Position numbers and translations under genes: made by a program. A DNA stretch of 64,000 nt from a virus, in UHGV virus genome UHGV-0091736; one strand, 5' to 3'. The notes under the pieces were generated by a model. It worked only from the letters and a program-made list of their open reading frames with translations, was not told the origin of the DNA and ran no database searches. Below, in pieces: positions 23,687 through 24,244 of this stretch. Position 1 is the stretch's first letter. Each line of letters opens with the position of its first letter.

Positions 23687-24244
23687 TTACATTTTCCAAT
23701 ATAATGAAGGTGGGTCGTAAGGGTCAAATCCTGTGAGTTCACACAAGAAAAGATAAACCTTAACAGTTAAGTTAACGTCCTGTTCACAATAAGTAAACAT
23801 ATCTTCAGTGAAAGCATCCCATGCTTCCTCTTGCTCACCGTAATCACCTTTAAGTTCCTCTAAGAACTCACCCCATTGCTTTAAGCCATGACCTCTTGGG
23901 CCATGTCTAGGGTCGCCTTTCGGGTACTCAGGACTGTCACCAATACGGTCAGGTTTAAGATATCGACTAAGACATAAAGTGTCAAAGACGTTAAAATGAT
24001 ATTCAATCAGATTGGGATACATCTTCTTCAGAGCACAAAGGTCGAAGTCGATAATGTTATGACCCACGAGTACATCAGCTTCTGTAAGTTTACGAATCCC
24101 ATCTTCAATTTGGTGAGGCCGATAGCCCCACCTTTCACCAGTTTCAACATCGAAGATATAAATACACCATACTTTAGTTATGTCGTCGTATAGTGCATTA
24201 CTCTCAATATCGAATGCAAACACTTTCTTCTTTTTCTTTACCAC
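23687..24244 (-). CDS. 3-prime to 5-prime exonuclease (DnaQ-like, homologous to the Pol A N-terminal exo domain), separately encoded
   Basis: Exo I FDIESNAL, Exo [11 protein letters not shown], Exo [12 protein letters not shown]. Confidence 0.7.

Follow-up and report, generated by a model that had tools for sequence, protein, structure and literature searches.

The 185-aa open reading frame at positions 23687-24244 of the window (the whole 64,000-nucleotide stretch of viral DNA analysed here, UHGV virus genome UHGV-0091736) appears to be the proofreading domain of a T7 gp5-type DNA polymerase, detached from a T7-type polymerase that is itself exonuclease-less. This reading is supported both by sequence comparison and by structure prediction. 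The split as such has been on record for this phage group, in annotation and in print, since 2008, and there is nothing new in it for this particular window; the phiEco32 genes for the two halves, gp74 and gp53, reportedly go back to Savalia et al. 2008. The novelty implied by the initial annotation is therefore not sustained, as the phiEco32 annotation, three papers and the PHROG families already describe the split. What the present check adds is the count of genes lying between the two halves and three predicted self-splicing elements, together with the corrections that make up its practical value, namely that the polymerase gene is apparently intron-split and that the primase/helicase gene is the conserved genetic partner of the exonuclease gene.

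A megablast search with positions 12000-27000 against 50,697 phage records matched 100 of them, nearly all from Escherichia or Shigella phages, and the best records reached 92-94% identity over 74-84% of the query. DNA identity to phiEco32 is about 93%, and by these similarities we assign the window to Kuravirus (Gordonclarkvirinae; type member phiEco32), i.e., to the phiEco32-like coliphages. Every gene discussed below (exonuclease, polymerase, helicase, nucleotidyltransferase and the genes of the gap) is carried by the minus strand. In the phiEco32 record (NC_010324) gp74 is annotated as [quoted passage not shown] and gp53 as "DNA polymerase; lacks 5'-3' and 3'-5' exonuclease domains". The separation has been described as shared by every Kuravirus-like phage and by related phages, and is also found in Salmonella phage 7-11, Proteus phage Privateer, Vibrio phage Vp_R1 and Aeromonas phage BUCT695 (PMC9965538). 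Polymerase and proofreading exonuclease are likewise separate genes in every member of the LUZ24 group, the same being noted for phiEco32 (PMC3517423), and a fission of the exonuclease and polymerase genes has been reported for the T7-like PolAs of S-SBP1-like cyanophages (Czernecki et al., 2023; PMC10201439).

The stand-alone exonuclease gene

23687..24244, minus strand: stand-alone 3'-5' (DEDDy) proofreading exonuclease gene (predicted), 185 aa, orthologue of phiEco32 gp74

The reading frame begins with a GTG codon that has a Shine-Dalgarno sequence (GGAG) 8 nt upstream, and its product is 97% identical in amino acids to phiEco32 gp74. Its Pfam match is DNA_pol_A_exo1 (PF01612, E=2.3e-8, 34.5 bits against a gathering cut-off of 23.6), and a PDB-wide sequence search returned T7 gp5 as the sole relative (residues 3-178, E=1.6e-10). 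Residues 8-181 aligned by BLASTP with residues 1-196 of T7 gp5 at 32% identity (E=3e-16), which confirms the resemblance to the N-terminal domain of T7 polymerase that the initial annotation had noticed. Its claim that all three Exo motifs are present also holds, the catalytic residues falling opposite those of T7 gp5: D12-I-E14 on D5/E7 (Exo I, DxE), H62-N63-I-I-D-F-D68 on H59-N60...D65 (Exo II, Nx2-3[F/Y]D) and Y152-C-E-Q-D156 on Y170...D174 (Exo III, Yx3D). In an alignment of 36 homologues (30-78% identity) D12, E14, H62, N63, D68 and D156 were invariant and Y152 nearly so (at least 90%).

Between the window and phiEco32 the gene has accumulated 23.7 synonymous and 9.3 non-synonymous differences, with a pN/pS of 0.098. 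By these measures the catalytic residues are conserved and the gene appears to be under purifying selection. That it could be the decaying, functionless remnant of a broken polymerase gene is hardly conceivable; a gene fragment is what it would be by origin, and nothing else recommends the idea. The conservation of the catalytic residues across relatives of 30-78% identity, the low pN/pS, the Shine-Dalgarno sequence and start codon of its own, and the retention of the stand-alone form across several phage families all argue against decay, and the pattern of conservation effectively refutes it. A pseudogene was thus rejected as a candidate on account of the strong purifying selection.

The AlphaFold2 model of the protein (pLDDT 93.1, pTM 0.89) gave the same picture. 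When it was compared with the PDB by Foldseek the best 27 matches were all T7 gp5 (E down to 2.7e-10, TM-score 0.71, query-normalised), and RNase D was absent among the 50 best fold matches. Two PHROG families named "DNA polymerase exonuclease subunit" were matched, phrog_38876 (E=3.1e-76) and phrog_403 (E=2.7e-38), while the NCBIfam profiles gave no meaningful family for this protein or for the neighbouring nucleotidyltransferase. The three Exo motifs, the above-threshold profile and the predicted RNase H-like fold together place the protein in the DEDDy / DnaQ-like 3'-5' exonuclease superfamily. PF01612 embraces RNase D and WRN-type exonucleases as well, so that the fold by itself is no proof of a proofreading role.

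The polymerase gene and three predicted self-splicing elements

12332..12484, minus strand: DNA polymerase gene exon 2 (predicted), aa 565-614, starting at the motif C Asp-Glu, stop codon included
12485..13091, minus strand: polymerase insertion of 607 nt in motif C (putative group I intron), with a 131-aa HNH_3 endonuclease ORF at 12605-13000 (Pfam E=2.9e-12)
13092..14783, minus strand: DNA polymerase gene exon 1 (predicted), aa 1-564, with thumb, fingers and palm motifs A and B, ending ...VIDMH
16734-17714, minus strand: PhoH intein (predicted), 327 aa, C65...N391 then C392, inside Walker A (APAG/C...N/CGKT)
24238..24492, minus strand: primase/helicase exon 2 (predicted), its stop overlapping the exonuclease GTG start (GTGGTAA)
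24493..25112, minus strand: helicase insertion of 620 nt (putative group I intron), with a 111-aa HNH_3 ORF at 24671-25006
25113..26648, minus strand: primase/helicase exon 1 (predicted; T7 gp4-like)

The reading frame at 13092-14783 had been presented as a polymerase without an exonuclease domain. The second half of this description stands, as Pfam finds DNA_pol_A alone and both BLASTP and phmmer align the reading frame solely with the part of T7 gp5 that begins at about residue 289-293 and ends at 704, the motif B tyrosine falling on T7 Y526. However, the reading frame is merely exon 1 of the gene, and the last 50 codons are found at 12332-12484. We placed the junction by direct inspection and by tblastn with phiEco32 gp53 (614 aa), of which aa 1-564 match 14783..13092 (99.6% identity) and aa 565-614 match 12484..12332. 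The interruption lies within motif C, between His564 and Asp565-Glu566, which correspond to T7 H653 and D654-E655. Once spliced, the reading frame has 614 aa with one terminal stop and is collinear with phiEco32. Owing to the intron, automated annotation yields a truncated "polymerase" that lacks the catalytic Asp of motif C.

On the profile of the PHROG family "DNA polymerase" (phrog_17, 1445 positions) the exonuclease covers positions 667-826 and the polymerase reading frame positions 836-1185. The two proteins thus share out the profile with a gap of only 10 positions between them, which suggests a T7-type polymerase divided at its interdomain linker with almost nothing lost. Two ways of producing a single polypeptide from the halves were considered and rejected. 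For trans-splicing or an intein joining the exonuclease to the polymerase there are no splicing motifs, and the exonuclease has its own stop and start codons; a programmed frameshift is at odds with the 9 kb between the genes.

The helicase gene is interrupted in a similar manner, its spliced reading frame of 596 aa having one terminal stop and being collinear with phiEco32. In local scans judged by E-value, the Rfam model Intron_gpI (RF00028, gathering score 50) matched the helicase insertion with 48.6 bits (E=4e-11) and the polymerase insertion with 27.5 bits (E=1e-4, weak but specific); at the gathering threshold, a scan of the whole window gave no match. At the polymerase insertion the 5' exon AUGCAU ends in a U that can pair with a G of the guide GUGCAU, at the helicase insertion the 5' exon AUGCGU also ends in U and the guide is GCGCAU, and both insertions end in G. 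They have their 5' guide region and core segments in common, and this accounts for the similar read-through tails of the two reading frames ("CACKSW" and "CACKTY"). From these features both genes appear to be split by intron-like elements, putative HNH-carrying group I introns for which self-splicing is predicted. Of 73 related records, 11 have the polymerase insertion as well, under the annotation of a homing endonuclease that separates two "DNA polymerase" CDSs. For the helicase insertion no phage record with the entire element was found at the megablast level; in this region of the helicase gene, the records O18-011 and VTCCBPA_211 show an insertion that resembles it in part. The 2023 review of Kuravirus does not use the word "intron" (PMC9965538).

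A third insertion was found in PhoH, one of the genes between exonuclease and polymerase. The protein is 572 aa long in the window and 247 aa long in phiEco32, the difference being due to an exact in-frame insertion of 327 aa, and its flanks are 98-100% identical to the intein-less phiEco32 PhoH. No match to the insertion was obtained in Pfam, in NCBIfam or in a sequence search of the PDB, and it was identified from its homologues and predicted fold alone. The AlphaFold2 model (pLDDT 90.7) has LAGLIDADG homing-endonuclease inteins as its best PDB matches (E down to 7e-14), with TliVMA, PI-SceI and PI-PfuI among them. Homologues sit inside other PhoH proteins, RtcB and other P-loop proteins; in these C1 and H69 are invariant, and a terminal TGN followed by S/C-GK is nearly so. 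The penultimate residue is Gly and not the usual His. We predict, from homologues and model together, that the insertion is an intein; it would be a new addition to a family of inteins already known, with no more than 45-47% identity to any sequence found.

Gene neighbourhood and likely history of the split

19464..19742, minus strand: phage thioredoxin gene (Pfam Thioredoxin, E=1.7e-13), between exonuclease and polymerase
22375..23685, minus strand: nucleotidyltransferase gene, 436 aa, orthologue of phiEco32 gp73 (phrog_12715, E=1e-222)

From the stop of the exonuclease to the start of the polymerase, downstream on the same strand, we measured 8.9 kb, in agreement with the 9 kb given by the initial annotation. 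Its figure of seventeen intervening genes has to be raised, as we counted 19 non-overlapping minus-strand reading frames and the phiEco32 record annotates 20. Among them are the nucleotidyltransferase, a dCTP deaminase, a free-standing HNH endonuclease, a ferritin/Dps-like protein, thioredoxin, ThyX, a stand-alone NAD-ligase Ia domain and PhoH. Many of the intervening genes serve nucleotide metabolism, dCTP deaminase, thioredoxin, ThyX and PhoH among them. The phage thioredoxin may be a processivity partner of the T7-like polymerase, a candidate role in keeping with a hypothesis already put forward for thioredoxin (PMC7881722).

The exonuclease gene is packed tightly on both sides. Its GTG start overlaps the stop of primase/helicase exon 2 (ccGTGGTAA), and the ATG of the nucleotidyltransferase follows 1 nt past the exonuclease stop (ATGTAAaATG). 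The close coupling to the nucleotidyltransferase claimed at the outset is therefore real as far as spacing goes, but it is absent in the three other lineages: the nucleotidyltransferase follows the exonuclease in Kuravirus only, its place being taken by a dCTP deaminase in Proteus phage J3S and in a 90-kb metagenomic contig and by a hypothetical gene in the LUZ24-like phage U47. The conserved partner is the primase/helicase gene, which lies directly upstream in all four lineages examined, overlapping the exonuclease gene or ending within 9 nt of it. Since it is with the genes for helicase and nucleotidyltransferase, and not with that for the polymerase, that the exonuclease gene is coupled, gene context alone does not link it to the polymerase.

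Two other readings start from this neighbourhood. One would be that the protein is an autonomous 3'-5' exonuclease which is not bound to the polymerase, acting with the nucleotidyltransferase, of CCA-adding type, on the 3' ends of RNA or tRNA, or else in the processing of DNA ends, in recombination or in the breakdown of host DNA. The single nucleotide between the two genes, the tRNA-Arg encoded by the phage, the 9 kb that separate the exonuclease gene from the polymerase and the RNase D-type RNA exonucleases within PF01612 would all be in accord with it. We consider it unlikely, as the nucleotidyltransferase does not stay next to the exonuclease in the other lineages, the nearest relatives in sequence and fold are the proofreading domain of T7 gp5 with no RNase D in the 50 best fold matches, and the exonuclease and the polymerase partition phrog_17 so closely. 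Moreover, a stand-alone exonuclease was accompanied by an exonuclease-less polymerase in every annotated genome examined, and the same is described for all Kuravirus-like phages (PMC9965538).

The other alternative is that the exonuclease enters the replisome mainly through the primase/helicase, as a proofreader in trans analogous to epsilon in the Pol III core. The helicase gene precedes it with an overlap or at most 9 nt in four of four lineages, over exonuclease identities down to about 33%, and coupling of the genes would co-ordinate the synthesis of both proteins. However, the T7 order of genes 4 and 5, kept by descent, accounts equally well for this arrangement, no sequence feature suggesting helicase binding was identified, and in a comparable split PolA the interface between exonuclease and polymerase is kept in an AlphaFold2 prediction (PMC10201439), all of which makes attachment through the helicase very unlikely. 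The long separation of exonuclease and polymerase, with the exonuclease gene directly behind that of the helicase in every lineage examined, might also point to a replisome of different design, although this seems quite unlikely. The helicase would then bring in or retain the proofreader, or the stoichiometry of the proofreader would differ from that of the polymerase; if true, fidelity could be tuned separately from synthesis.

The preferred reading, a detached proofreading domain, is also consistent with what surrounds the relatives of the protein. In a word-indexed search all 59 of the closest ones were short (101-247 aa). An exhaustive profile search matched 6129 proteins, dominated by fused homologues of 560-730 aa; among the best 148 representatives of the 6129, 86 had at least 550 aa, and the fused forms listed carry the match at their N-terminus. 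By tblastn the domain was detected in 1820 phage records, mostly in fused T7-like polymerases, with stand-alone forms annotated in several lineages. The order in Proteus phage J3S (Grimontviridae; exonuclease 44% identical) is primase/helicase, exonuclease subunit, 15 genes and DNA polymerase, and in U47 primase/helicase, "DNA polymerase part I, 3'-5' exonuclease domain", 7 genes, "part II" and a 5'-3' exonuclease. The 90-kb contig (48% identity) has helicase, exonuclease and dCTP deaminase, with the polymerase outside the 10-kb flank examined. This succession of helicase, exonuclease, gap and polymerase runs collinear with T7, where gene 5 comes after gene 4.

A crude neighbour-joining tree grouped 52 stand-alone forms in one clade, which included the window, J3S, BUCT695 and most of the 59 closest relatives, and put U47 and some other short sequences among the fused polymerases. 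As U47 falls outside the stand-alone clade and short metagenomic reading frames may be fragments, the tree allows no conclusion on the number of fission events. The pattern agrees with an old fission that split a T7-type gene 5 at the linker between exonuclease and polymerase, after which other genes, many of them for nucleotide metabolism, would have accumulated in the gap.

Proposed association of the two halves and comparison with known systems

We consider it likely that the exonuclease attaches to the exonuclease-less polymerase by non-covalent contacts, and that it proofreads in the manner of the gp5 exonuclease domain. The exonuclease half would have kept its place directly behind the primase/helicase, as gene 5 has behind gene 4 in T7, and would be translationally coupled to it, the polymerase half having moved to a position 8.9 kb further along the same strand with about 19 genes between them. 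Together the two proteins would rebuild, without a covalent bond, a two-lobed enzyme like gp5, in which the mismatched 3' end of a primer would leave the polymerase site for the exonuclease site, to be removed there by two-metal-ion hydrolysis involving D12, E14, D68 and D156 with Y152. This model has indirect support from the intact and selected active site, from the fact that almost nothing was lost at the break, from the constant company of an exonuclease-less polymerase and from the complex predicted for S-SBP1, where the split exonuclease and polymerase modelled by AlphaFold2 superpose on the unsplit PolA (PMC10201439). Enzymatic activity, physical association and the proofreading role are what we infer from this body of evidence; a search of the literature found no experimental test, of activity or of polymerase binding, of a trans-acting exonuclease subunit in these phages.

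If the model holds, split family A polymerases would show that the two lobes, exonuclease and polymerase, can function on separate chains, which could be of use in enzyme engineering, e.g., for exo-minus polymerases obtained without mutagenesis. The split also bears on the origin of proofreading subunits such as Pol III epsilon or PolD DP1.

The closest known system is phiEco32 itself, with 97% (exonuclease) and >99% (polymerase) amino acid identity to the window and with the same gene order, strand, overlap with the helicase gene and nucleotidyltransferase after the exonuclease. It differs in that its polymerase and helicase genes are uninterrupted and its PhoH has no intein. With T7 gp5 the window shares the exonuclease (32% identity, identical catalytic residues), polymerase motifs A, B and C, and a helicase gene before the polymerase. 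T7 gp5, however, is one polypeptide of 704 aa that works with the thioredoxin of the host, whereas this phage encodes its own thioredoxin, which may act as a partner and could thus be a further likeness. The epsilon subunit (DnaQ) of E. coli Pol III is also a DEDD proofreading exonuclease on a polypeptide apart from polymerase alpha. This is a functional analogy only, as the epsilon/alpha pair combines a family C polymerase with a DEDDh exonuclease, against family A and DEDDy in the window, and the two are not specifically related.

In the LUZ24-like phages (Bruynoghevirus) the stand-alone exonuclease gene also overlaps the primase/helicase gene and an exonuclease-less PolA is found downstream on the same strand, but there the halves are separated by just 7 small genes (about 2 kb), and the exonuclease, about 33% identical to ours, falls outside the Kuravirus/J3S clade of the crude tree. 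The S-SBP1-like cyanopodoviruses (PMC10201439) resemble the window in having a T7-like PolA with exonuclease and polymerase on two genes, and in that case too association of the products was inferred, from AlphaFold2. Their genes, however, are adjacent and overlapping, the outcome of a recent +1 frameshift, whereas those of the window are 8.9 kb and about 19 genes apart and, with stand-alone homologues down to about 33% identity, would descend from an old split.

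Helicase-exonuclease junction and a possible polymerase partner

The start of exo, the gene for the predicted stand-alone proofreading exonuclease, and the stop of the primase/helicase gene overlap or lie no more than 9 nt apart in all four lineages that we examined, namely Kuravirus, a 90-kb metagenomic contig, the LUZ24-like phage U47 and Proteus phage J3S. Downstream of exo the next gene varies.

Positions of the helicase-exo junction
24238-24244, the window (Kuravirus)
10001, L004 (90-kb metagenomic contig)
5974-5990, L006 (U47)
15988-15998, L007 (J3S)

A phage thioredoxin gene lies between exo and the gene for the T7-like DNA polymerase (pol):

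19464-19742, minus strand, phage thioredoxin

At residues ca. 45-125 the polymerase has kept a stretch alignable to part of the thioredoxin-binding region of T7 (T7 residues 289-356), and the phage thioredoxin has been proposed as a processivity factor (PMC7881722).

Intron-like elements in the polymerase and helicase genes

Both pol and the primase/helicase gene contain a group I intron-like element with an HNH ORF inside.

Group I intron-like elements and their ORFs
12485-13091, minus strand, element in the DNA polymerase gene (607 nt)
12605-13000, minus strand, HNH_3 endonuclease ORF within the polymerase element
24493-25112, minus strand, element in the primase/helicase gene (620 nt; Rfam 48.6 bits, E=4e-11)
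24671-25006, minus strand, HNH_3 ORF within the helicase element (111 aa)

The Rfam Intron_gpI score of the polymerase element is only 27.5 bits. It is inserted in motif C, between His564 and the catalytic Asp565, with the U at the end of the 5' exon opposite a G of the guide GUGCAU, and its last nucleotide is G; the His codon at this site is CAT in the window but CAC in the intron-less phiEco32. Of 73 related Kuravirus records, 11 carry the same element; in their annotation it is a homing endonuclease flanked by two polymerase CDSs. The helicase element likewise has a U-G at its 5' splice site and a G at its end, and the 5' guide region and core segments are common to both. The whole helicase element was found in none of the 50,697 records of the phage collection at the megablast level; in O18-011 and VTCCBPA_211, an insertion that resembles it in part occupies this region of the helicase gene.

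A predicted intein in PhoH

The PhoH ORF (16188-17906) is interrupted in its Walker A motif, with junctions at APAG|C...TGN|CGKT:

16734-17714, minus strand, predicted intein (327 aa)

The AlphaFold2 model (pLDDT 90.7) predicts an intein with a LAGLIDADG-type endonuclease fold, its best PDB matches being VMA inteins, PI-SceI and PI-PfuI. The penultimate residue is Gly, not His. No match was found in Pfam or NCBIfam, nor in any phage record at the megablast level, and there was no Kuravirus among the tblastn matches listed. Its relatives, at most 45-47% identical, reside in PhoH (Acinetobacter phages), RtcB (Bacillus phages) and the primase/helicase (Pseudomonas phage KIL4).

Ligase domain, tRNA and free-standing HNH gene

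18075-18404, minus strand, 109-aa ORF, N-terminal Ia (NAD+-binding) domain of NAD-dependent DNA ligase (Pfam Nlig-Ia, E=2e-35)
21306-21830, minus strand, free-standing HNH_3 endonuclease ORF (174 aa), just upstream of dCTP deaminase
40340-40416, minus strand, tRNA-Arg (anticodon TCT), the sole tRNA in the window

The 109-aa ORF is made up of the Ia domain only, which is odd on its own; the phiEco32 orthologue is labelled simply "DNA ligase". The window contains at least three HNH genes in a span of 13 kb, among them the 174-aa ORF, which overlaps the dCTP deaminase gene. Unlike the window, phiEco32 has no HNH gene next to dCTP deaminase, while phage EcoN5 carries one at the equivalent position.
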